The notes under the pieces were generated by a model. The model had not been told where the DNA came from and did not search any database. It worked only from the letters and a program-made list of their open reading frames with translations. A stretch of 64,000 bases of DNA, taken from NCBI GenBank assembly GCA_017412115.1, contig JAFPYR010000053.1, positions 62,815-126,814 of the forward strand. The letters run 5' to 3'. Positions 51,567 to 64,000 of this stretch are shown here, in pieces. The stretch comes from Bacteroidales bacterium (lineage in GTDB: Bacteria > Bacteroidota > Bacteroidia > Bacteroidales > UBA3824). Position 1 is the stretch's first letter; the number at the start of each line of letters is the position of its first letter. The translations under genes were made by a program, and so were the position numbers.

Positions 51567-53066
51567 CTAATCATCATGTTTGAAATAATCCAATATGTAT
51601 AACAAGTTGTCAGACTGCTGTTTAAGTTTATCAGAATTGGCTGCAACCTCTTCTGAAATCGAAGCGAAATGCTGTGTCGTGGTATTAAACCTCTGAACTG
51701 CCGTATTAATTTGGTCGCTGCCTGAGGCCTGCTCCTGACACGCCGCCGCAATTTCCTGAACCAAAGTCGTAGTACGTTGCATTTTAGGCAAAGCCTTTGC
51801 AAAAGCATCTCCGGTTTGAATTGCAACGGATTGACCGCCAGAACTTACAGAATCAATTTCTTTTGCTGCTAATGCACATCTCTCAGCAAGTTTTCTAACC
51901 TCAGCTGCAACAACGGCGAAACCCTTACCGTGTTCACCGGCGCGTGCAGCTTCAACGGCAGCGTTAAGTGCCAAAATATTCGTTTGAAATGCAATTTCGT
52001 CAATAATGCTAATTTTTTCTGCAATATCACGCATTGCCTTTGTAGATTTTTCAGCAGTAACACTATACGCTTGAATTGTCTGAGATGTTTCAACGGCAAT
52101 TTTTTGAGTCTCTTTGGCGTTATCGGAATTTTGCTGAATCGACGATGACATTTCCTCAATCGAAGAGCTGACTTCTTCGGCAGAGGCAGCCTGATCGTTT
52201 GCGGAATTACTCATTTGCTGACTTGCCCGATTCATCTCGGCACTTGTATCGGCAATCTCTGCCGCACAATTTTTAACCGAACTTACAATATTTCTCAAAT
52301 TATCAACAAGATCGGCTACGGCATTGTTGAGTACTGCAATTTCATCTTTATTATCCGAACGCATCGCTTTAATAGTCAAATCACCTTTGGCAAGATTAAC
52401 CGCATTTTTGATACCGGCTTTCAGCGGAATAACAGAACGCTTTCTAAAATCCCGAGACGCCATCAAATACATCAAAACGGAAATTAAAACGCCTATTATA
52501 ATTGTTATCAGACATGATTCCGTATTTTTAGCGAGAGCCTTCGAGGTGTTTTTAATAACTCCTGCCGCAGAGGTCTGAAGTGTTGCCGCCGAAACAGAAA
52601 TTTTTTCACGCAAAGCCGCTAATTCGGAAATATTACTTTCTCCGTTTGCCTGCAAATTAGCATTAACAATGGATAAAAACCTTTCAAACCCCTCCTTACA
52701 AGTTTTATAATCGGTTTGAATGGCCTCTTCCATATCACTGCCAATAAACTCAGATAAAGCATCTAATTTTGTCTGAGCCTTACGACAATTTTCCGAAGCG
52801 GCATTACGGTTTTCAATTTGTCTTGTCTGAGCATACAGTGTAATGTGTTTGTTTGCAGCATTAACGTCAATAACCATAGCGTCAGCCGTCTGCATGACAT
52901 CAACATATTTGTCGGTGAGTTTGTTGGCAAAATCGTCGGCACTTTTTACTTTTACTAATACAATTAAAAGTGTAATCAAAAGCGGAAGCGACACCACCAA
53001 AACTCCCAATGAAACGTTAAACGACAAAGATGCATTTCGTAATTGTTTGTCTAAAATAAAAGCCAT
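51567..53066 (-). CDS. Methyl-accepting chemotaxis protein (TM, 4HB-like sensor, TM, HAMP, short MCP signalling domain)
   Basis: The highly conserved hairpin-tip sequence [39 protein letters not shown] is present. There are two TM helices. No che genes are in the window. Confidence 0.9.
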
Positions 53067-53134: not shown

Positions 53135-53761
53135 TTATAACAGACTTTCAATCGCTTTTTCAATTACTTTTATATCCTCGGTAGGTTCAAAACGCTCCAA
53201 GACATTGCCATCTCGGTCAATGAGAAATTTAGTAAAATTCCATTTTATATCGGGATTTTTATCATAATTCGGGTCAGCTTTAGAAAGCATATCAATAAGG
53301 ATTTTTCCGATTTGGTGATTGGGGTCAAAACCCTTGAAACCTTTCTTAGATTTCAAATATGCAAACAGCGGCGACTGCGCCTCTCCGTTAACATCTATCT
53401 TCTTGAACTGCGGGAATTTAGTAGCATAATTCAATTGACAGAATTGATGAATTTCTTCTTCCGTGCCGGGTGCTTGTTGTCCGAACTGATTACACGGAAA
53501 ATCAAGAATTTCAAGCCCTTTTGCGGAGTCCTTCTCATAAAGAGCTTCAAGTTCGGTGTACTGCGGGGTAAATCCGCAACGTGTGGCAGTGTTGACAATC
53601 AACAAAACCTTTCCTTTGTAGTCCGCAAGGCTGACATCATTACCTTTGCGGTCTTTGACTGAAAATTTATATATTTCCATATCTTGAGAATTTTTACAGG
53701 CACCAAGTGCCATTATTAATAAAAAGGTTAATGTAAATATTCTATTGCGCATATTTTTCAT
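53135..53761 (-). CDS. gpx: Glutathione peroxidase family protein with signal/lipoprotein N-terminus (Cys-type, not Sec)
   Basis: [24 protein letters not shown] and [12 protein letters not shown] motifs. Lipobox LGAC. Confidence 0.88.
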
Positions 53762-53876
53762 AACGTGTTATTTTTCGGGGGCAAGGTATGGAAAAAAAAT
53801 ATAATATGCAACTTTTTACGTTTTTTTTAGAAAAAAATTTGTTTGTTACCAAAAAGTAATATAAATATTTTGGATT

Positions 53877-54080
53877 ATGATTAAGGACAGAGACAATACA
53901 GAAAGGCGAATCCTTGACGCTGTGGGCAAGATTGTGGAGCGTGAAGGGTTTGAAGCGGTGGGCATCAACGCCGTTGCCGCTGAGTCGGGCGTCTCGAAAA
54001 TACTTATATTCTTCAAACCGCTGCCCGTCATTATGGCTACAATTCCAATTATATCTACAATGACGGCAAAATCGTTGTAA
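53877..54080 (+). pseudogene. TetR/AcrR-family regulator, N-terminal HTH fragment only (about 43 aa of authentic sequence)
   Basis: RILDAVGKIVEREGFEAVGINAVAAESGVSKILI is a TetR HTH. After about 54005 the sequence is no longer TetR-like and stops at 54078-54080. Confidence 0.65.
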
Positions 54081-54787
54081 CTCTCATAAAACAAGAAGTT
54101 TATAATGACGACCCGCTATTTGAAGCAATCAAAAAGCGGCACACTCACCGCGGCAATTTTACGGGCGAAAAAATCCCCGCAAACCTCCTGCAAAACATTT
54201 CTACAACTTTTTTGCAAGATGTTAATAATGAAAATAATGCATCGATGATGCTTTATGACTCTGAGAGCCGCGAATCCAAAATCATCAAGCAAAAAATCAC
54301 CAATGGCAACGAAATCCAAATGTCTGACACAGCGTTTAGACGCGAACTCATTTCGTGGATGCGTTTCAATAAAAAACAAGTCAATAAAACGCACAACGGT
54401 TTGTGTTACAATGTTTTGGGATTTCCTGCGACGCCCAAGCCCATCGGCAGAAAGATTGTCGGAATGTTCCTCAATCCCAAAGCCCAAAACAAGACCGACA
54501 ACGCCGTCAATGCCTCCGCCTCGCATTTCTGTGTGTTTTGCGTCAAGGAAAACAACGTCCAAAATTGGATTGACCTCGGAGTATTTTTGGAGCGTTTTCT
54601 CCTGAAAATCACTTCGGAAGGCATCGCATATAGTTTCAGCAATCAGCCCTGCGAAATCCCGTCGTTGAAAGAAAATCTTCAACAAGAACTTGCGGTAAGT
54701 CATTATCCGTCAGTGATTATCCGTTTAGGTTACGGCAAAGAGCCGAAAAATTTTGCGCCGAGGGAAGAGGTGATGGTCCACAACTAA
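53984..54787 (+). pseudogene. Nitroreductase-like (two-domain Acg/FMN-binding type) gene lacking its 5' part and lacking an ATG at the head of the open frame
   Basis: The frame is open from 53984. ...LFEAIKKRHTHRGNFTGEKIP is the nitroreductase R(H/S)TxR motif of a second half-domain. The first in-frame ATG is at 54245. The 5' end overlaps the TetR fragment in another frame. Confidence 0.5.
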
Positions 54788-54827
54788 AAAATCTGCAAAA
54801 AGTTACTAAAAATCCCTTGTTTTTGCT

Positions 54828-54872
54828 GCAAAAAGTTACTAAATTTGCGTCGTAAACACTGCAAAAAGTTAC
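54828..54872 (+). promoter_or_regulatory. 45-bp promoter/5'-UTR cassette, copy 1 (contains the TAaaTTTG -7 box at 54840-54847); an extra partial copy lies at 54793-54813
   Basis: gcaaaaagttactaaatttgcGtcgtaaacactgcaaaaagttac ends 4 nt before the ATPase ATG. It is 44/45 identical to 56198..56242. Confidence 0.8.
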
Positions 54873-54876
54873 TACG

Positions 54877-56178
54877 ATGATATTTAAACGAAAGATATTC
54901 AGCGAGATAGAGCGATGGAATAAGAATAGCCACAAAGAGGCATTGTTAATTAAAGGTGCGCGACAGGTTGGCAAAACCACTGCGGTGCGTGAATATGCAC
55001 GTGCCAATTACGATAATTTCGTGGAAATTAACTTTGAACAGACGCCTGAGGCTAAACAGGCTTTTGCCGGAAGCCGCGACGCCAACACCGTCATACAACG
55101 ACTCAGCCTTATGGGTTATGGACCTTTTGTGCCGGGCAAAACTCTCGTTTTCTTCGACGAAATCCAAAGTTGCCCCGATGCACGCACCTCAATTAAATTT
55201 TTGGCTGAGGACGGACGGTTTCAATACATTGAATCGGGTTCTTTGTTGGGCATCAATTACAATGATGTTAGTAGTTATCCTGTTGGATTTGAAAGCCAAA
55301 TAGAAATGTTCCCGCTTGATTTTGAGGAGTTTCTGTGGGCAAAAGGTGTTGGTGAGGATACGATTGATAATCTAAGGCGCACATTGTTGGAACTTAGGCG
55401 TGTGGATGATTTTACACACGAAATCATGATGAAACATTATAGAGAGTACCTTGTTGTGGGCGGAATGCCAAAAGTTGTGTCCACTTTCTTGACTAACAGC
55501 GACTTCAACGAAACTCTTCGTCAGCAAAAAATCATTACGGACAGTTACCGCCTTGATATTGCAAAATACGCCGACGCACAGAAGACAAGAGCAAAACGTT
55601 TTTTCGACGCGATTCCGTCGCAACTCGCCAAAGAGCGTAAACGGTTCATTCTCTCCGACTTGGAGGCAAGTGGCAGTATGCAAAAATACGAGAATTCGGC
55701 ACAATGGCTCGCTGATGCAGGTGTTGCATATTTTAGTTTCAACACTCATTCGTTGCAAATGCCGTTTGAACAATACGAAAACCGTAACTTGTTTAAAGTC
55801 TATCTGTTGGATACGGGATTGCTGTGTTCACTTTGGAGCGGAAAAATTCAATGGGAAGTGATGCAGGGCGACATTGCTGTCAACGAAGGCGCATTAACAG
55901 AAAATTTTGTTGCCGCAGAACTCGTAAGACACGGTCATTCTCTCCATTATTACGACCACAAAAGCCGCAACGAACTTGACTTCCTCATCCGTGAAAAACG
56001 GTTTGTGACAATTTTGGAAATCAAGTCGGGCAGTGATTACAAAAAACACGCCTCCCTCAACAATGTTTTGGAATCATCTTCCGACAGTATCGAGCGTAGC
56101 ATCGTCCTCTGCCGTGGCAATGTAGAAAAACGCGGCGAAATTTTATATTTGCCGTTGTATGCAGCCGGTTTTTTGTAG
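54877..56178 (+). CDS. AAA_14-type ATPase with a C-terminal DUF4143 (restriction-endonuclease-like) domain
   Basis: Walker A GARQVGKTT. Walker B LVFFDEIQ. The C-terminal ELDFLI...ILEIKSG is a PD-(D/E)xK-like motif. Confidence 0.8.
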   Translation: MIFKRKIFSEIERWNKNSHKEALLIKGARQVGKTTAVREYARANYDNFVEINFEQTPEAKQAFAGSRDANTVIQRLSLMGYGPFVPGKTLVFFDEIQSCPDARTSIKFLAEDGRFQYIESGSLLGINYNDVSSYPVGFESQIEMFPLDFEEFLWAKGVGEDTIDNLRRTLLELRRVDDFTHEIMMKHYREYLVVGGMPKVVSTFLTNSDFNETLRQQKIITDSYRLDIAKYADAQKTRAKRFFDAIPSQLAKERKRFILSDLEASGSMQKYENSAQWLADAGVAYFSFNTHSLQMPFEQYENRNLFKVYLLDTGLLCSLWSGKIQWEVMQGDIAVNEGALTENFVAAELVRHGHSLHYYDHKSRNELDFLIREKRFVTILEIKSGSDYKKHASLNNVLESSSDSIERSIVLCRGNVEKRGEILYLPLYAAGFL

Positions 56179-56197
56179 AAAGATGATTGCATTTTTC

Positions 56198-56242
56198 GCA
56201 AAAAGTTACTAAATTTGCATCGTAAACACTGCAAAAAGTTAC
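56198..56242 (+). promoter_or_regulatory. 45-bp promoter/5'-UTR cassette, copy 2 (TAaaTTTG at 56210-56217)
   Basis: gcaaaaagttactaaatttgcAtcgtaaacactgcaaaaagttac ends 4 nt before the NADAR-gene ATG. Confidence 0.8.
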
Positions 56243-56246
56243 GATT

Positions 56247-57224
56247 ATGAATACAGTAATCTTGTTTTGGAATCCTGAAATTTCGAGTTTTAAATACGAC
56301 GATTTAGGATATGCCATTAAGAATATAAACAACGAGACCTTCAATTGGAGTGTCTGGGAGCACGAAAAGGCAAAGAAAGGCGATAATTTCTTCCTCGTGA
56401 AGTGCGGTGGGGAAACAAACAATGGAATCTGCATGAGCGGACATTTTGTTTCCGACCCGTACCTCGGCGAAGATTGGTCAGGCAAGGGGCGCAAGGTCTA
56501 TTACATGAATATGAAAATTGACGTTGCCATCAATCCCAAATATTTCCCCGTCCTAAAGACGGAAGAATTGCAGAAAGTGTTTCCGGATTTTGATTGGACG
56601 GGCGGACATTCGGGACGTATATTGCCGAAAATTTACACGCCGCAGAGCATTTGGAAGCAGTTTCTTGAAAACAACTTGGGTATTTTTGTGCAACAATCAT
56701 ATCTTGATCCCTCAATATTCAAAAAATACACCCGCGAGGATTTTATATTTTTTTGGCACGAGTATCCGCACGACCCTGTTCAGAAAACTTGCCTAAGCCA
56801 ATGGTATGCCTGCAATTTTTGCGTTTCGGGCATAGAGTATTTCACAACCGAGCAATATATGATGGCCTCGAAAGCATTGCTATTCAAGGATTTGGATGTT
56901 TATCAAAAGATATTTCAAGCCAAAACACCCAAAGAGTTCAAGAATTTGGGCAAACTTGTGAAAAATTATGACGATTCCGTTTGGAATCTGCACAAGGACC
57001 GCATTGTCATCGAAGGCAATTATGCTAAATTTTCTCAAAATCCCGAATTGAAAAACTTTTTGCTCTCCACAGGCAACAAGATTTTGGCTGAAGCAAGTCC
57101 CATTGACACTATTTGGGGCATCGGGCTTGAAGAATCCGACGACCGCGTCCTCGACCCTGCGCAATGGCAAGGCGAAAATCATCTCGGCTTTGCACTTATG
57201 AAAGTAAGGGATATGTTGAGATAA
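56247..57224 (+). CDS. Two-domain protein: an uncharacterised N-terminal ~165-aa domain (possibly PUA/EVE-like) fused to a NADAR (YbiA/DUF1768) domain
   Basis: The C-terminal half, FFWHEY...LSQWY...FTTEQYMMASKALLF...NLHKDRIVIEGNYAKFSQNPELKNFLLSTGNKILAEASPIDTIWGIGL, fits NADAR. The N-terminal half, ILFWNPEISS...NWSVWEHEKAKKGDNFFLVKCG...EDWSGKGRKVYYM...FDWTGGHSGRIL, resembles a domain I recall fused to HNH nucleases. That assignment is unverified. Confidence 0.7.
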   Translation: MNTVILFWNPEISSFKYDDLGYAIKNINNETFNWSVWEHEKAKKGDNFFLVKCGGETNNGICMSGHFVSDPYLGEDWSGKGRKVYYMNMKIDVAINPKYFPVLKTEELQKVFPDFDWTGGHSGRILPKIYTPQSIWKQFLENNLGIFVQQSYLDPSIFKKYTREDFIFFWHEYPHDPVQKTCLSQWYACNFCVSGIEYFTTEQYMMASKALLFKDLDVYQKIFQAKTPKEFKNLGKLVKNYDDSVWNLHKDRIVIEGNYAKFSQNPELKNFLLSTGNKILAEASPIDTIWGIGLEESDDRVLDPAQWQGENHLGFALMKVRDMLR

Positions 57225-57317
57225 AATTGCGATATAAAGCCAATGGAATAAAAAAGTATTTTTTGCTTTTGCGGTGAAAAAGCGTTATATTTGCCGCAAA
57301 AATTGCGGTGAATAATT

Positions 57318-58406
57318 ATGTATATTTGGCAGAAAAAAGACTTTCCTAATTTTGTTTGGGACACTTTAACGGTTATGCAAAGGCTGTCTGAGGTGAAATT
57401 CAATGTCGGAAAACTTTCCGGCATTATGGCCTCGCTCGGTTTTGAAGTGAAAGAAACTACGGCTCTTGACTCCATAACATCAGACATAATAATGTCGTCG
57501 GCAATTGAGGGTATTACACTCAACCGCAACGACGTGCGCTCGTCTGTGGCATGGCAGTTAGGAATCGACAATGCAGGCGTTCCGGCCTCAAACCGATATA
57601 TTGAAGGCGTGGTTGAAGTTATGCTCGATGCCGTCAAAAATTGTAATGAATTATTGACAAAAGATAAACTCTTTAAATGGCATACTTTGCTTTTTCCGTC
57701 GCCCTCACGGTTGGAAAAAATCACAGTCGGCACTTGGCGCAATAGTCCGCTGCCTATGCAAGTGGTTTCGGGACGTTATGGCAACGAAAAAGTTCACTAC
57801 GAAGCGCCACCGTCATCGCAAGTGCCTGAAATGATGGACGTTTTACTCGATTTTATAGCAAACGGAAAACTTGACGGCATTTTAAAAGCGGCAATAGCGC
57901 ATTTGTGGTTTGTAACCGTACATCCGTTCAGCGACGGCAACGGACGTTTGGCGCGGACAATTATGGATATGCTTTTGGCTCGTAACGACGGCAGTCAAAA
58001 TCGTTTTTATAGTATGTCAGCCGCCATAGCCGAAAACCGTAAAACGTATTACGAAGTCTTGGAGCGTACACAAAAAGGCGGTTTAGATATTTCGGAGTGG
58101 CTTTTGTGGTTTTTGGATTGTCTTGACAATGCCGTTGAAAAAGCAGTAAATGTTACAAACCGCACACTAAAAAAAGCAGTTTTTTGGAGCGGACATAATC
58201 AAACAGTTTTCAACAGCCGCCAAATAAAAATCATAAATATGCTTTGGGACGGTTTTGAAGGCAAACTTCAAACCGGGAAATATGCAAAAATCAACAAATG
58301 TTCTACCGATACAGCACTCAGGGACATTCAGGATTTGGTCAGCAAAGGCGTTTTAGAAAAAAAAGATTCCTCCGGCAGAAATACGGAATACGGATTGAAA
58401 GAATGA
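57318..58406 (+). CDS. Fic-family protein (class II: N-terminal inhibitory helix, Fic core, C-terminal wHTH)
   Basis: Canonical HPFSDGNGRLAR (57921-57956). Inhibitory motif SSAIEG = [ST]xxxE[GN] (57495-57512). The protein has its own TAtaTTTG box upstream. Confidence 0.9.
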   Translation: MYIWQKKDFPNFVWDTLTVMQRLSEVKFNVGKLSGIMASLGFEVKETTALDSITSDIIMSSAIEGITLNRNDVRSSVAWQLGIDNAGVPASNRYIEGVVEVMLDAVKNCNELLTKDKLFKWHTLLFPSPSRLEKITVGTWRNSPLPMQVVSGRYGNEKVHYEAPPSSQVPEMMDVLLDFIANGKLDGILKAAIAHLWFVTVHPFSDGNGRLARTIMDMLLARNDGSQNRFYSMSAAIAENRKTYYEVLERTQKGGLDISEWLLWFLDCLDNAVEKAVNVTNRTLKKAVFWSGHNQTVFNSRQIKIINMLWDGFEGKLQTGKYAKINKCSTDTALRDIQDLVSKGVLEKKDSSGRNTEYGLKE

Positions 58407-58410
58407 TATA

Positions 58411-58453
58411 AAAAGGGCTGACAAGTCTTTGTGCTTATCAGCCCTAAAAAAAA
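58411..58453 (-). terminator. Terminator hairpin between the convergent Fic and tex genes (T-run on the tex side)
   Basis: Stem gggctgacaag / cttatcagccc (one mismatch). Confidence 0.6.
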
Positions 58454-58455
58454 TG

Positions 58456-60588
58456 CTATTCTTTCACCAACCCTAATCCGATTCTGTTTCTATCAACGTC
58501 CACAGTCAAAACTTTGACCCTTACGGGTTGATTGATTTTCAGAATGTTAGCGGGATTTACGGGGTTGCGTTTTGTGCCGCCGAACTGCGAAATATGAATC
58601 AGTCCGCTCACATGAACGCCTAAGTCCACAAACGCACCAAAATTAGTAACGTTTGTAACAATTCCGTTAAGTTCCATACCTTCTTTCAAATCCGTGATTT
58701 TCTCCACATTTTGCTCAAATTCAGGCACTTTGAACTCACCGCGCGGGTCTCTTCCGGGCTTTTCCAACTCTGTCATAATGTCAGTTAAAGTTGGCAATCC
58801 CGTCTTGTCATCAACGTATTTTTTGACATCGATTTTTTTGCGCATATCGGCATTAGAAATCAAATCTTTGACACCGCAGCCCAAATCTTTTGCCATTTTG
58901 CTAACGATGTAGTATTTTTCGGGGTGAACGGCTGAATTGTCAAGCGGATTTTCTGCGCCTTCAATCCTTAAAAATCCGGCGCACTGTTCAAAGGCTTTTT
59001 CACCCATTCGCGGCACTTTTTTGAGTTCTGTCCTCGTGCCGAAAGGTCCGTTTTCTTTCCTGTAATTGACAATGTTTTGCGCCAAAGTAGGACCTAATCC
59101 AGAAACGTACATCAAAAGATGTTTTGATGCCGTATTAACATTAACGCCAACTTGATTGACACAACTAACTACCACATCATCAAGACTTTCCTTTAATTTT
59201 GTTTGGTTGACATCGTGCTGATATTGTCCGACGCCGATGGATTTCGGGTCTATTTTAACAAGTTCTGCAAGCGGGTCAAGTAGTCGCCGTCCGATTGAAA
59301 CCGCACCTCTTACCGTAACGTCGTATTCGGGGAACTCTTCGCGGGCAACTTCCGAGGCCGAATAAATTGACGCGCCGGATTCAGAGACGATATAAACCTG
59401 AATGTCGCGGTCAAATCTCACTTTTTTAATAAAGCGTTCTGTCTCGCGGCTTGCCGTGCCGTTACCGATAGCGATACAGTCGATTTTGTACTGCTCAACA
59501 AGGGTCGTAACCTTGCTCATCGCCGCAAAAGCCTCTTTCATACCCGAATGTGGAAAAATCGCCTCGTTGTGCAAAAGGTTGCCTTGCTCGTCAAGACAGA
59601 CAAGTTTGCAGCCGGTGCGGAATCCGGGGTCGAGTGCTAAAATTCTTTTCTTTCCTAACGGACTTTGCAACAATAAGTTACGAAGATTTTCCGTAAAAAC
59701 TTTTATCGCCTCTTCGTCGGCTTTTTCTTTTGAAAGGTTTGCAAATTCGGTTTCCATCGACGGTTGCAAAAGTCTTTTGTAACAATCCTCGGCGGCGAGT
59801 TTTATTTGTTTTGCGCCTTCGCCTTTGCCTTTAACAAACTGACGTTCAAGGATATTGAGTGCGTTTTCGTCTTCGGGTTTGATTGTGATTTTCAAAAAGC
59901 CTTCGTTTTCGCCTCTCATCATCGCCATAAGACGGTGCGAGGGAATGCGCGAAAGGCGTTCTGAATAGTCAAAATAATCTTTGAATTTCTGCGCCTCTTC
60001 TTCTTTGTCTTTAACTAACTTACTGAAAATCACCGCTTCACGGCTGTAAAGATTTCGCATACGGTTTCTTGTTTCAACATTTTCGTTGATATGTTCGGCG
60101 ATAATGTCGCGTGCGCCTTGCAAAGCGTCCTCAATGTTCTCAACTTTATCGTTCAAAAACTTCTCTGCTAACGCTTCACAATCAGAGTTTTGCTGCAAAA
60201 GAATCATATTTGCAAGCGGTTCGAGACCTTTTTCTTTGGCAACGGTCGCGCGGGTCTTTTTCTTCTGTTTGTAAGGAAGATAGAGGTCTTCGAGGTCGGT
60301 CATCGAAAGAACTTCGTCGATTTTTTTCTTCAATTCGTCTGTCAATTTTCCTTGACCCTCAATTGACTCCAAAACCGCCGTTTTACGTTTTTCGAGTTCC
60401 TCGTATTTTTTGAGTTCTTCTTTTATCTGACTGACCTGCACTTCGTTAAGCGTTCCGGTTTGCTCTTTACGGTAACGACTTATAAAAGGCACTGTTGCTC
60501 CTTGTGAAAACAAAAATGCTGTATTTTTGACTTGAATGTCTCTGATGCCAAGTTTTGCGGCTATAAGTTTTATGTATTTTTCGTCCAT
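58456..60588 (-). CDS. tex: Transcription accessory protein Tex (YqgF/HhH/S1 domains)
   Basis: 710 aa. The N-terminus IAAKLGIRDIQVKNTAFLFSQGATVPFISRYRKE is diagnostic. A C-terminal S1 domain is present. Confidence 0.92.
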   Translation of the reverse strand: MDEKYIKLIAAKLGIRDIQVKNTAFLFSQGATVPFISRYRKEQTGTLNEVQVSQIKEELKKYEELEKRKTAVLESIEGQGKLTDELKKKIDEVLSMTDLEDLYLPYKQKKKTRATVAKEKGLEPLANMILLQQNSDCEALAEKFLNDKVENIEDALQGARDIIAEHINENVETRNRMRNLYSREAVIFSKLVKDKEEEAQKFKDYFDYSERLSRIPSHRLMAMMRGENEGFLKITIKPEDENALNILERQFVKGKGEGAKQIKLAAEDCYKRLLQPSMETEFANLSKEKADEEAIKVFTENLRNLLLQSPLGKKRILALDPGFRTGCKLVCLDEQGNLLHNEAIFPHSGMKEAFAAMSKVTTLVEQYKIDCIAIGNGTASRETERFIKKVRFDRDIQVYIVSESGASIYSASEVAREEFPEYDVTVRGAVSIGRRLLDPLAELVKIDPKSIGVGQYQHDVNQTKLKESLDDVVVSCVNQVGVNVNTASKHLLMYVSGLGPTLAQNIVNYRKENGPFGTRTELKKVPRMGEKAFEQCAGFLRIEGAENPLDNSAVHPEKYYIVSKMAKDLGCGVKDLISNADMRKKIDVKKYVDDKTGLPTLTDIMTELEKPGRDPRGEFKVPEFEQNVEKITDLKEGMELNGIVTNVTNFGAFVDLGVHVSGLIHISQFGGTKRNPVNPANILKINQPVRVKVLTVDVDRNRIGLGLVKE

Positions 60589-60650: not shown

Positions 60651-61511
60651 TTAAAATCTGTACGTCAGAGCCGTTTCAAAAGTCAGCCCCGCACCGTCAA
60701 TTTCATCACCAGAATTAACATCAGCCCAGGCCTTTGTACCAAATCTGAAACCTATCTTGCAGGGAAATTCAAACCCTTCACCGAGCAAAACACCAAAAGT
60801 TTTGTCAGGAAAAGCATTGTCCCCAACCGTTACCGGCTGATACGAATCCAAGCCGATTTTGTCGGAAACAACAACCTCATAAAGCGGTCCGAACAGAAAA
60901 TACAAACGGCACCGCCCCAAACGGATATTCCATTTGCACAACAATGGAAAACTCAAATAATGAAATTTTCCGTTCATATCATAACTGACAGGATACGAAT
61001 ACAAATACCCGCTTAAATTCAATTCGCCGTTTATCTGCCGCTGATAATACATAACGCCGGTTTCAAAAGCGAACACTTTCGTAAGATTAATGTCCAGATA
61101 CACTCCGCCGTTAAACTGGGTTGTGGTAACCTCACCAAGGCTCACACCTTCGGTAACGTAATAATTGGCTTCATAATCTCCCCAGTTAACATCAAAACCC
61201 GCCTTCAGCCCGAGTTCCACACGACGGAAAGTTTTTTTCGTCAAAACGATTTCAATTTCCTTTCCTTCAACAACCTGTATTTCCACCGGGTTATAACCGG
61301 CAACAGAAACTCTGATAACGTTGCCGTTGTGCAATTTGATAGTGAACTTGCCGTCAGCACCGGAAAGCGTGGAACTCGTAACTCCTTTTTCCTCAATGGT
61401 TGCGCCGACAAGAGGATTGCCGTCAGGGTCTTTGACAATGCCCGTTACAACCTGCGCAAAAAGCTCAACGGAAAAAAGCATTGCAAAAGCTAACAATAAA
61501 ACCTTTCTCAT
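60651..61511 (-). CDS. Outer-membrane protein: carboxypeptidase-regulatory-like N-domain + porin-type beta-barrel
   Basis: Signal peptide MRKVLLLAFAMLFSVELFAQ. VTGIVKDPDGNPLVGATI is the CarboxypepD_reg signature. The C-terminus is a beta-barrel ending in F. The ATG at 61511 was verified. Confidence 0.7.
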   Translation of the reverse strand: MRKVLLLAFAMLFSVELFAQVVTGIVKDPDGNPLVGATIEEKGVTSSTLSGADGKFTIKLHNGNVIRVSVAGYNPVEIQVVEGKEIEIVLTKKTFRRVELGLKAGFDVNWGDYEANYYVTEGVSLGEVTTTQFNGGVYLDINLTKVFAFETGVMYYQRQINGELNLSGYLYSYPVSYDMNGKFHYLSFPLLCKWNIRLGRCRLYFLFGPLYEVVVSDKIGLDSYQPVTVGDNAFPDKTFGVLLGEGFEFPCKIGFRFGTKAWADVNSGDEIDGAGLTFETALTYRF

Positions 61512-61626
61512 AATATTTCTTTTTTTGCCAAATATAAAACATTTTTTTTGAAAACACAAAAACTAAAATCAAATAAAAAAATGCAAAAAATTTTTGATTT
61601 TTTGTAATTTATTCATTTATTTTTTC

Positions 61627-61634
61627 TACTTTTG
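61627..61634 (+). promoter_or_regulatory. Bacteroidota -7 promoter box TActTTTG for the NTPase-WD40 gene
   Basis: Matches the TAnnTTTG consensus, 28 nt upstream of the ATG at 61662. Confidence 0.5.
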
Positions 61635-61661: not shown

Positions 61662-64000
61662 ATGGAAAATCAATATTTTTTAGGCTCAGAAGCTTACCGC
61701 GCCAACGAGGCAGAATTTTTTCCTGCAAGACAAGACGAAACTCAAAGATTAAGTTATATGCTTGATAACGAAAGAGTTAGCGTTTTAACATCGGATGCAC
61801 GCTACGGTAAAACATCTCTTATCAACGCCGGTATTTTGTCAGAAAACAATTTGAAGAAAAAAAATGCCGCTGCGCTGAAATTTGACGTTCCCGTTTTTGA
61901 ATTCGGTGCTAAAGTTCTTGAAAAACAGTTGGTTGATTTCGTTTCTAAATTCTGTCAAAAACCTGAATATATTGATATGTCATTTGAAAACGACGGTTCG
62001 TTGTGGTTTGCAATGAAACGTTTTCAAGCCAATCAAAAAGATAAAAAACGCATTTATCTTATCTTGGACTCTTTTGAAAACTTTTTTACGTACACTCAGG
62101 CCTCAAGAAAAGAATTTTCAAAAGCGTTAGCCGACTTGATTTACGGTGAAATGCCGCAAAAAATCAACGAAGAACTCCAAAACATAATGTTAGGAAAATC
62201 CGACACCGTAATCTCAAAAGAAGGAATGTCAATGATTTACGAGCCGCTGAACATTTCATTACTTTTCAGTGTCTCAAAAGATAAATACGGTTCGCTCGCG
62301 GAACTAAACCAACATATCAGAGGCATTTTCCAAAACGTTATGAATCTTGAGGCTTTTGATTTTTCAACTGCTGCTAATGCTATCCAAATAATTGTAAAAC
62401 AGCCGTTTAACGAGCTTCAAGAAATCGAAATCGACGAAAAACTTTCAGATAAAATTCTTTCGGAAATTTCGTTTAATTCGATGGTTAGCCCACAAGTTTT
62501 AAGAAATGCCGTTTTGTTTTTAAGAAACAACCCACAAGAAAATTATTTTTCCAAAAACGTTTTTTCTTATTTTACGGAGTCGTTGGAGGATAATGTTAAA
62601 GAAAATTTTCAAAGATTTGTCTTCAACGAAATGGTTTTGGAAGGCGAAACACAACCGCTTCCAGCTTACAAAACAATTGCTTTGAGAAACTACTCGTTAG
62701 AGGAAAATATTTTGGACAAGGCAATAAAATACGGCATTCTAAAACGTCATATAACCGATGACGGAAGAATTTTTTATCTGCCTTGCAATGCCGAAATTTT
62801 CAAAGCGATACTTTCTTTAAAAGGTTTTTCCGCTCAGAATAATTTCACAGAAACACCTAAAATTCAAGCCTTTGCAACAATTGAAAAAGAGAAAAAAAGT
62901 TTCAAATCGCAACGCAACAAAACATTGGTTCTCTCCTCAATGTTAATAGCATTAATAAGTGTTGCGTTTGTATTTTTGGCATTTTCGTTGAAAGGCGATG
63001 CCGAACGCAGTGCAAACATGGCTAAAAGTAATATGCTGACGGCTTTTGCATTTCAAAAATTAGAAACCGACCCGACTTTCAGTTTAAGACTTTCACAAAA
63101 AGCCATTGCACTGGACACCTCTAACATTCAGGCTTACAGCGCATTACTAAATTCTTTTTATAATACTGACATTTTTTACAACATAACGGGAAATTTGGAA
63201 GAAAACGTTGTTAAATCCGAAATTTCCTCTGATGCCACATACGTTTTGACATACGTTAAAAATGAGACGGAAGAAAAATATTCAGCACGGATTCTTACCG
63301 CTGACGGAAATATTGTTTTGCAAATTCCTCATAATAAAGAAATTACGTCAATAACAATTTCAAAAGACAAATCCAAAATTTTAACGACCTCATACGATAG
63401 TACGGCAAGAGTTTTCGATTTTTCTGGCAAAGAAATTCTTTCGATAAAAGGTCATAAAGCCATACTTTGGGCGGCGGATTTTTCTTTTGATTCTGAAAAA
63501 ATTCTCACCGCTGGCAGCGATTGCAAAGTAAAAGTTTGGGATTTTTCAGGTAATTGTCTTTCAACACTTTCGGGACATGACACAGATGTCTATTCGGCAA
63601 AATTTTCACCGGACGGAATGTCGATTTTAACATCTTCGGGCGACAATACGGCAAGACTTTGGACTTTGGATGGCAAACTCAAAAAAGTTTTTGAAATCAA
63701 AGAAGACAACAGATTTTGCGTTTCGTTAATTATTTCAGCCGTTTTTTCACCTGACGGAAAATACATTTTGACGGCTTCAAACGATTATCTTAACAAAAAT
63801 CATAAAGCCCGCCTTTGGGATTTGGAAGGCAACGAATTAGTAACCTTTTCCGGACATGACCTTTGGCTCAACTCCGCTGAATTTTCTTCAGACGGCAAAT
63901 ATGTAATAACCTCTTCAAGGGACAAAACTGTCAGAATTTTTCAGCTTAACGGCAAGCAGGACAAGGTTTTACGCGGTCATAACTCCAATGTTTGGAGTGC
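61662..64000 (+). CDS. nSTAND1-like P-loop NTPase + single TM helix + WD40 beta-propeller repeats; 3' end beyond the window (absent from the supplied ORF track)
   Basis: I translated this by hand and found no stop from the ATG at 61662 to 64000 (about 779 codons). The N-terminus YFLGSEAYRANEAEFFPARQDE...VSVLTSDARYGKTSLINAGIL has a P-loop (GKTS = 61806-61817). Walker B-like IYLILDSFEN. TM helix TLVLSSMLIALISVAFVFLAFSL (62922-62990). From about 63330 there are at least 5 WD40 units (GH...WD/FD, e.g. GHKAILWAADFS...VKVWD, GHDTDVYSAKFSPDG...ARLWT). Confidence 0.8.
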   Translation, partial: MENQYFLGSEAYRANEAEFFPARQDETQRLSYMLDNERVSVLTSDARYGKTSLINAGILSENNLKKKNAAALKFDVPVFEFGAKVLEKQLVDFVSKFCQKPEYIDMSFENDGSLWFAMKRFQANQKDKKRIYLILDSFENFFTYTQASRKEFSKALADLIYGEMPQKINEELQNIMLGKSDTVISKEGMSMIYEPLNISLLFSVSKDKYGSLAELNQHIRGIFQNVMNLEAFDFSTAANAIQIIVKQPFNELQEIEIDEKLSDKILSEISFNSMVSPQVLRNAVLFLRNNPQENYFSKNVFSYFTESLEDNVKENFQRFVFNEMVLEGETQPLPAYKTIALRNYSLEENILDKAIKYGILKRHITDDGRIFYLPCNAEIFKAILSLKGFSAQNNFTETPKIQAFATIEKEKKSFKSQRNKTLVLSSMLIALISVAFVFLAFSLKGDAERSANMAKSNMLTAFAFQKLETDPTFSLRLSQKAIALDTSNIQAYSALLNSFYNTDIFYNITGNLEENVVKSEISSDATYVLTYVKNETEEKYSARILTADGNIVLQIPHNKEITSITISKDKSKILTTSYDSTARVFDFSGKEILSIKGHKAILWAADFSFDSEKILTAGSDCKVKVWDFSGNCLSTLSGHDTDVYSAKFSPDGMSILTSSGDNTARLWTLDGKLKKVFEIKEDNRFCVSLIISAVFSPDGKYILTASNDYLNKNHKARLWDLEGNELVTFSGHDLWLNSAEFSSDGKYVITSSRDKTVRIFQLNGKQDKVLRGHNSNVWS

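Follow-up and report, generated by a model that had tools for sequence, protein, structure and literature searches.

An nSTAND1 NTPase joined through a predicted membrane helix to WD40 propellers in rumen Bacteroidales

The nSTAND1 clade of STAND nucleoside triphosphatases (NTPases) was named by Kaur, Iyer, Burroughs, and Aravind in an account of counter-invader systems, in which it is linked to EACC1 systems (eLife 2021; PMC8195603). The source data of that study contain the architecture string ‘nSTAND1+TM’ (TM, transmembrane helix) 412 times and ‘nSTAND1+TM+BetaPropeller’ 278 times, and they list the effector-less form nSTAND1+TM+BetaPropeller+TPR as well as CASPASE+nSTAND1+TM+BetaPropeller with an upstream EACC1 gene and EAD7+nSTAND1+TM+FGS (PMC8195603). 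In a 2025 preprint, ‘transmembrane STAND ATPases’ form one class of sensors attached to protease-effector Pepco modules (bioRxiv 10.1101/2025.11.14.688446). In the literature that we searched, the nSTAND1+TM+BetaPropeller architecture is not discussed at length and no experiments on it are reported; a search combining STAND NTPases, a transmembrane helix, and a periplasmic location returned no papers. Here, we analyse a gene of this kind at the downstream edge of a 64,000-nucleotide stretch of Bacteroidales DNA (hereafter ‘the window’; GenBank assembly GCA_017412115.1, contig JAFPYR010000053.1, positions 62,815 to 126,814 of the forward strand). The order of NTPase, membrane helix, and propeller is already catalogued and common, and the window gene is a further member.

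The gene starts at position 61662 on the forward strand and, on direct translation, remains free of stop codons for 779 codons until it runs off the window at position 64000. A first-pass annotation, made by a model from the letters and a list of open reading frames, had described it as an open gene of about this length missing from that list, which is correct: the list is without it because the reading frame leaves the window before a stop. Reading back in frame from the ATG, the first stop is reached 19 codons upstream and no other ATG intervenes, and the M-E-N start of the window protein is shared by its homologues in an alignment of twelve family members (aa 1–535, where aa is amino acids; hereafter ‘alignment A1’). 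An in-frame upstream extension carrying an effector, of which the first-pass annotation had likewise seen no trace, is excluded by this stop and this common start. The octamer TACTTTTG (61627–61634, +), 27 nt 5' of the ATG and singled out in the same annotation, fits the Bacteroidetes -7 promoter motif TAnnTTTG, and we take it to be a putative promoter element.

The window holds aa 1–779, the N-terminal 70%, of an nSTAND1-TM-WD40 protein with 1123 aa, and the remainder was obtained, as the first-pass annotation had advised, by extension through relatives (contigs L001–L004 and protein P0001); on these contigs, all carrying P0001, the gene ends 1.0 kb past the window edge. L001, a contig of rumen Bacteroidales, is 97.6% identical to the window. 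In a protein search, P0001 (1123 aa) was 99% identical across all 779 window residues, and about 40 full-length Bacteroidales homologues had identities of 31–62%; because of these matches, the gene is not a chance open reading frame. The frame is intact across 1123 aa in five independent contigs, and a metagenome-assembled genome from sheep rumen, RGIG6989, is 98% identical. In a scan of one genome per species, the family was confined to uncultured Bacteroidales of the rumen, other ruminant gut sites, and horse faeces. The host of the window gene is likewise an uncultured bacterium of this order from the rumen.

The assignment of the N-terminus to nSTAND1, proposed from motifs in the first-pass annotation, is borne out by profile, alignment, and structure prediction. 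The predicted cytoplasmic nucleotide-binding domain (aa 1–230; 61662–62351, +) matches the Pfam model PF20703 (nSTAND1) over aa 7–160 with 47.4 bits against a gathering cutoff of 27.1, a partial match that covers only model positions 3–148 of 379. Alignment A1 shows no variation at G8, R23, G49, K50, T51, or D136, and the window protein has all three expected motifs: the N-terminal arginine motif (G8/R23), the Walker A GK[ST] (aa 44–52, read from the translation as S-D-A-R-Y-G-K-T-S; 61791–61817, +), and the Walker B strand (62049–62069, +), of which D136 is the last residue. The serine in place of the first Walker A glycine, described earlier as a degeneration of the P-loop, is indeed present but is not exceptional; it is the family norm, found in 25 of the 28 close relatives scored, and the same position in broad relatives is S in 72, L in 23, A in 15, and G in 8.

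A profile built from alignment A1 and searched against 1.84 billion cluster representatives matched 18,089 of them at E<=1e-3 and 1,135 at E<=1e-30, the top matches spanning profile positions 1–470 with E-values of 1e-63 to 1e-83. All ten of the best matches tested carry PF20703 at 97–124 bits, most over model positions 2–342 and two up to position 376 of 379. Because these full-module relatives match nearly the whole Pfam model, the entire N-terminal region is, on profile evidence, nSTAND1, and the rumen clade is a divergent branch of it.

The AlphaFold2 (AF2) model of aa 1–533 (predicted local distance difference test score [pLDDT] 82.9; 85–95 over aa 10–390) has a five-strand P-loop core (pLDDT ~90), a helical lid, and a winged helix. 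Together with the Foldseek matches, it places the last two elements at aa 231–390 (62352–62831, +), with lid helices within aa 234–356 and winged-helix hairpin strands at aa 360–364 and 370–374 (pLDDT 85–94). The best Foldseek match in the PDB is Apaf-1 (3sfz; E 2.7e-7, about 12% sequence identity), and further matches are the archaeal ATPase PAB2304 (2qen), Cdc6/Orc1, ZAR1, Avs4, SAMD9, and CED-4. A search of the sequences of solved structures with the family profile yielded nothing significant (best E 0.069), and an NCBIfam search of the window protein gave no match. As modelled, the N-terminal part, on the cytoplasmic side, has all three elements of a STAND module (P-loop domain, lid, and winged helix), and it has no fused effector, given that the protein begins at nSTAND1 model position 3; ‘effector-less’, the word used in the first-pass annotation, applies to the polypeptide but not to the family at large, in which relatives encode effectors separately.

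One sub-clade (loci L026, L028, L029, and L030; proteins P0032, P0033, P0035, P0036, P0039, and P0042) has GGRTW instead of GKTS in the P-loop, is without the first ~25 residues, and has a cytoplasmic part shorter by ~100 aa. It retains the membrane helix, the propellers, and an upstream gene cassette encoding a trypsin-like protease (described below), and its sequences point to a probable pseudo-NTPase form of the sensor.

A linker rich in Lys and Arg follows the STAND module (aa 391–420; 62832–62921, +); it is predicted to be cytoplasmic and disordered, with low identity and a pLDDT below 50 at aa 392–416 and 390–419 in two AF2 models, and the flank TIEKEKKSFKSQRNK, directly N-terminal to the next element, is strongly positive. 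That element is the hydrophobic segment TLVLSSMLIALISVAFVFLAFSL (aa 421–443; 62922–62990, +), located at exactly these coordinates in the first-pass annotation. None of its 23 residues is charged, and its best 19-residue Kyte–Doolittle mean is 2.69. All 43 of the closest-family proteins listed, partial ones included, have a strongly hydrophobic segment at the matching position, with best 19-residue means of 2.3–3.1 in nearly all and 1.86 in the most divergent, P0043. Farther out, 134 of the 146 best cluster representatives newly found by the profile search have one such segment at aa 330–560, and most of the 12 representatives without it are much shorter proteins, which are probably fragments. 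Other WD40 proteins in the same match list (for example P0044, P0045, and P0052–P0054) have no segment of this kind.

The charges on the two sides of the segment differ in a consistent direction: the 15 residues on the N side contain on average 4.4 Lys and Arg versus 2.6 on the C side in the close family (n=40; N exceeds C in 82%), and 6.3 versus 3.3 in the broad set (n=132; 93%). In the AF2 models, the segment is inside one long helix, from aa 415 or 420 to aa 465 or 466, that comes after 25–30 disordered residues. Hydropathy, positional conservation, and charge asymmetry together support the prediction of a true membrane helix, single and oriented N-in/C-out. Because this helix separates them, the NTPase and WD40 halves would lie on opposite sides of the membrane, as the first-pass annotation had proposed, and because the NTPase depends on NTP from the cytoplasm and the charges fit the positive-inside rule, the WD40 part, and with it the propellers, is predicted to be periplasmic. 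The accompanying claim that such a topology is unusual for a STAND sensor fails for this clade, given that those 134 of the nearest 146 representatives share the layout and that it is catalogued 278 times.

The predicted periplasmic part begins with a helical juxtamembrane module (aa 444–503; 62991–63170, +), delimited by conservation and AF2, which is the most conserved segment of the protein. Its pattern is SN.L.A.AF....DPT.S.RLAQ.A...N..AYSALL..YNT..FY, its invariants in alignment A1 include N457, D470, P471, T472, S474, R476, N488, A491, Y492, and Y500, and AF2 places helices at aa 471–484 and 489–500 (pLDDT ~90). The WD40 repeats (Pfam WD40, E 6e-38) begin at about aa 504, and Pfam and AF2 indicate that the first six to seven blades, predicted to be periplasmic, fall within the window (aa 504–779; 63171–64000, +). 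In the full-length AF2 model (pLDDT 86.9), 55 strands of three or more residues lie within aa 504–1090, which would amount to about 14 blades in the complete protein, enough for two propellers; a conserved 33-aa helical tail closes the C-terminus. A recently amplified, hypervariable WD40 array was considered and ruled out by the blade-to-blade identity, of which the mean is 0.29 and the maximum 0.51.

Conservation is unevenly distributed along the protein. Mean pairwise identity is 0.44 in the nucleotide-binding domain, 0.35 across the lid and winged helix (lowest among the folded regions), 0.16 in the linker, and 0.40 in the transmembrane helix, and in the ectodomain it is 0.73 in the juxtamembrane module, 0.55 in the propellers, and 0.60 in the C-terminal tail. 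Because the predicted outer half is the most conserved, a conserved ligand would be expected rather than an arms-race target.

P0046, one of the matches at the WD40 level, combines Pfam domains of a Ser/Thr kinase and WD40 repeats with a hydrophobic stretch at aa 464–482, which suggests that the module of TM and WD40 also joins a kinase instead of an NTPase.

Partner genes are found in relatives of the window gene. In 16 of the 23 informative species-level sister loci, the family gene closes a same-strand cassette, the upstream members of which encode, in order, a protein of ~440 aa and of no recognised kind, a cytoplasmic Trypsin_2 protease of ~365 aa, and a small lipoprotein (L005, 3481–6776; L006, 1344–4529; also L008, L009, L014, and L016–L031). 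The cassette is without a recognisable EAD. The protease has in addition a zinc ribbon and, at its C-terminus, a region weakly resembling YbjN; its His/Asp/Ser triad and its zinc-ribbon cysteines are invariant in 16 loci, and its protease domain resembles that of PADLOC ‘RT-Protease_XI’. Searches with the ~440-aa protein gave nothing above threshold in Pfam and nothing in the PDB. The cassette, though missing in the window lineage, is present in the next-closest clade (L014, 56% identity). One copy adjoins the ribosomal-protein/SecY operon, and some cassette loci lie among integrases, toxin genes, and AlbA_2/PD-(D/E)XK genes.

The sister clade closest to that of the window (P0003) has no trypsin cassette and instead has three conserved convergent genes just downstream (L007, 10414–11618, -; also L011, L012, L013, and L015). 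Their products are a membrane protein of 55 aa, an LptC/OstA-like lipoprotein, and, as the third, EACC1, which has a Gly-rich helix and scores 25.5 bits against a cutoff of 23.6. A further kind of partner occurs in distant Bacteroidota relatives of the nSTAND1-TM-WD40/TPR type, where all four loci examined have a SIR2_2+EAD11 gene 3–139 bp upstream (L035, 4758–5861; L036, 4867–5967; L037, 3231–4328; L038, 3915–4988). Two of these four loci also have a divergent stand-alone EAD11 gene, and the NTPase proteins of these distant relatives have no room for an N-terminal EAD11.

The window copy stands by itself. In L001, the gene lies between a divergent gene for a CarboxypepD_reg/outer-membrane barrel protein, which in the window occupies 60651–61559, and a convergent gene for a MiaB-like radical-SAM enzyme, and it is monocistronic because of these divergent and convergent flanks. 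A functional tie to the barrel gene was rejected, its homologues outside the window clade being limited to one locus, at 31.6% identity and not adjacent. Between the window and L001, the codons of the nSTAND1 gene have 44 synonymous and 11 non-synonymous differences; with roughly three non-synonymous sites for every synonymous one, the ratio is near 0.1, which indicates that the window copy is under clear purifying selection. The window gene is an orphan sensor subunit without an adjacent effector cassette, still maintained by selection, and its partner must either lie at another place in the genome or have been lost.

We read the window protein as a single-pass inner-membrane nSTAND1 sensor of the conflict or defence type, with a separately encoded effector and no adjacent partner here, and give this reading a probability of roughly 0.55. 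For the family as a whole, a conflict or defence sensor that monitors the cell envelope is the most likely role, which we infer from the separately encoded effectors (trypsin cassette and SIR2-EAD11) and from the STAND mechanism. The periplasmic propellers would bind an envelope-level signal or a ligand outside, whereupon the cytoplasmic modules would oligomerise at the membrane in a nucleotide-dependent way, much as other STAND proteins do, and in this form switch on an effector from a separate gene. In most sister species this effector would be the cytoplasmic trypsin-like protease with its zinc ribbon, co-encoded with the 440-aa protein and the lipoprotein; in distant relatives it would be the SIR2-EAD11 protein. 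A more specific version is rather doubtful: an outside-in STAND receptor, in which the double WD40 propeller, perhaps together with the lipoprotein, would detect an event in the envelope, for example phage penetration or wall damage, and signal to the zinc-ribbon trypsin, which would in turn process the 440-aa protein.

Several observations weigh against a conflict or defence sensor. The immediate neighbours of the gene in the window and L001 are housekeeping genes, namely those for Tex (58456–60588, -), the outer-membrane barrel protein, and the MiaB-like radical-SAM enzyme. No homologue of the trypsin, the 440-aa cassette protein, SIR2, EAD/EAD11, or EACC1 was found in the 64-kb window, and the downstream search for partners that the first-pass annotation had suggested was also fruitless for this lineage, with no effector, EAD, trypsin, SIR2, or EACC1 gene in the 3.8 kb visible in L001; in most relatives the effector genes are upstream instead. 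PADLOC reported only a repeat-level HEAT-ARM_XIII match within the WD40 region of the window protein, and no defence system. The predicted sensor half is, by sequence, more conserved (55–73%) than the NTPase (35–44%), and its blades are ordinary diverged repeats, a conservation pattern unlike that of fast-evolving immune sensors. NTP turnover may be dispensable for the function of the family, given the GGRTW sub-clade. Finally, the topology is a predicted one, and the proposed pairing of NTPase and protease rests on gene adjacency.

Some of these observations would be better explained if the protein, with the same architecture and topology, had a physiological role. It would then be a housekeeping trans-envelope receptor that recognises a conserved ligand, self-made in the envelope or from the environment, and signals inward, by analogy with receptor kinases that have extracellular propellers or with the hybrid two-component sensors of Bacteroides. 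We regard this as possible, at clearly lower odds than a conflict sensor. The highly conserved juxtamembrane module (73%) and propellers (55%), the absence of recent amplification among the blades, and the lack of a PADLOC defence match speak for it, as do the solitary position of the window gene among housekeeping genes, its purifying selection, and the cassette copy next to the ribosomal-protein/SecY operon; the cassette lipoprotein would suit a periplasmic co-receptor. Against it, nSTAND1 was defined within counter-invader systems (PMC8195603), the wider family is tied to the conflict effectors SIR2-EAD11 (in all four loci examined), EACC1, and trypsin, and some cassette loci keep company with integrases, toxin genes, and AlbA_2/PD-(D/E)XK genes.

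Two other readings, both very improbable, concern the helix and the integrity of the window copy. Characterised STAND-WD40 proteins are, to our knowledge, cytosolic, and AF2 cannot model membranes, so that the protein might be soluble and similar to Apaf-1, with its hydrophobic helix buried or peripheral. This is contradicted by the uncharged 23-residue core and its hydropathy of 2.69, by the retention of the segment throughout the 43 closest proteins listed and in 134 of the 146 representatives at a sequence conservation of only 40%, by the consistent charge bias, by the 30-residue disordered linker before one long isolated helix, and by the WD40 proteins of the same match list that are without the segment; moreover, the authors who described nSTAND1 mark this feature as TM (PMC8195603). 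That the window copy is a decaying, non-functional remnant could be argued from the loss of the cassette, which L014 still has, and from the P-loop residue aa 48, Tyr in the window allele and Cys in P0001, but this has hardly any likelihood given that aa 48 is variable across the family, every invariant motif residue is kept, the frame is intact in five independent contigs, and synonymous differences outnumber non-synonymous ones by 44 to 11.

Elsewhere in the window, a segment of ~4.7 kb (53762–58455) between the glutathione peroxidase gene (53135–53761, -) and Tex is missing from L001, where the flanking genes are 175 bp apart. It encodes a 195-aa open reading frame product without a family, an ATPase of the AAA_14+DUF4143 type, a 325-aa protein ending in a NADAR domain, and a protein that combines DUF4172 with Fic/DOC, and it looks like a small strain-variable island. 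This insert, with its Fic, NADAR, and AAA_14 genes, lies upstream of the nSTAND1 gene and stops 3.2 kb short of it; the immediate neighbours of that gene are housekeeping genes. Next to the insert's upstream flank, positions 51567–53066 (-) encode a 499-aa protein with an MCPsignal chemotaxis domain (E 5.5e-37), which is conserved in L001.

For the window, the value of these results is mainly one of annotation: the gene is real, complete in related contigs, and of a catalogued architecture, not a new kind of system. In the papers that we searched, there is no experimentally studied membrane-anchored STAND protein with its sensor outside the cytoplasm, yet such proteins are numerous in sequence data. 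If the predicted topology is right, surveillance resembling that of nucleotide-binding leucine-rich repeat (NLR) proteins would extend from the cytoplasm to the cell envelope. If, moreover, the outside-in receptor described above were true, it would be the first defined NLR-like protein to survey the extracytoplasmic space, and the window copy and the GGRTW sub-clade would show the sensor working with remote partners or without NTP turnover. The four-gene cassette of the sister species is a better experimental entry point than the window gene.

Among known systems, the catalogued nSTAND1+TM+BetaPropeller proteins are closest to the window protein, sharing the NTPase clade and the order of NTPase, single TM, and propeller. 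Many catalogued nSTAND1 examples have a caspase, kinase, EAD, or helix-turn-helix domain fused at the N-terminus, whereas the window protein has none. The rumen clade departs from the catalogued nSTAND1 proteins in matching no more than the first 148 positions of the Pfam model and in its usual partner, a free-standing trypsin/zinc-ribbon cassette, which the window copy does not have nearby. The NTPases of the SIR2-EAD11 pairs (in Rapidithrix, Saprospiraceae, and others) are likewise effector-less, membrane-anchored nSTAND1 proteins and match the family profile from the N-terminus through the helix with E-values of 1e-75 to 1e-81, but they are longer (1371–1850 aa) and have TPR besides WD40; nothing similar is found in the window. 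In the EACC1 two-gene conflict system (PMC7159879), the comparison turns on an adjacent EACC1 gene, which was found neither in the window nor downstream in L001.

More distant likenesses are those to Avs1-5 and bNACHT proteins, which also combine a STAND sensor with protease or NADase effectors activated by oligomerisation; Avs proteins, however, sense phage proteins in the cytoplasm and have fused effectors, whereas the sensor of the window protein is predicted to be extracytoplasmic. Apaf-1, the best structural match of the N-terminal module, similarly has a STAND module followed by two WD40 propellers, but it is a cytosolic member of the NB-ARC/AP-ATPase clade with a CARD at its N-terminus and without a membrane helix. 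Receptor Ser/Thr kinases and the hybrid two-component sensors of Bacteroides have a cytoplasmic signalling module, one helix, and an extracytoplasmic beta-propeller. The window protein would share that plan and differ from them in its cytoplasmic module, which is a STAND NTPase rather than a kinase or a pair of histidine kinase and response regulator.

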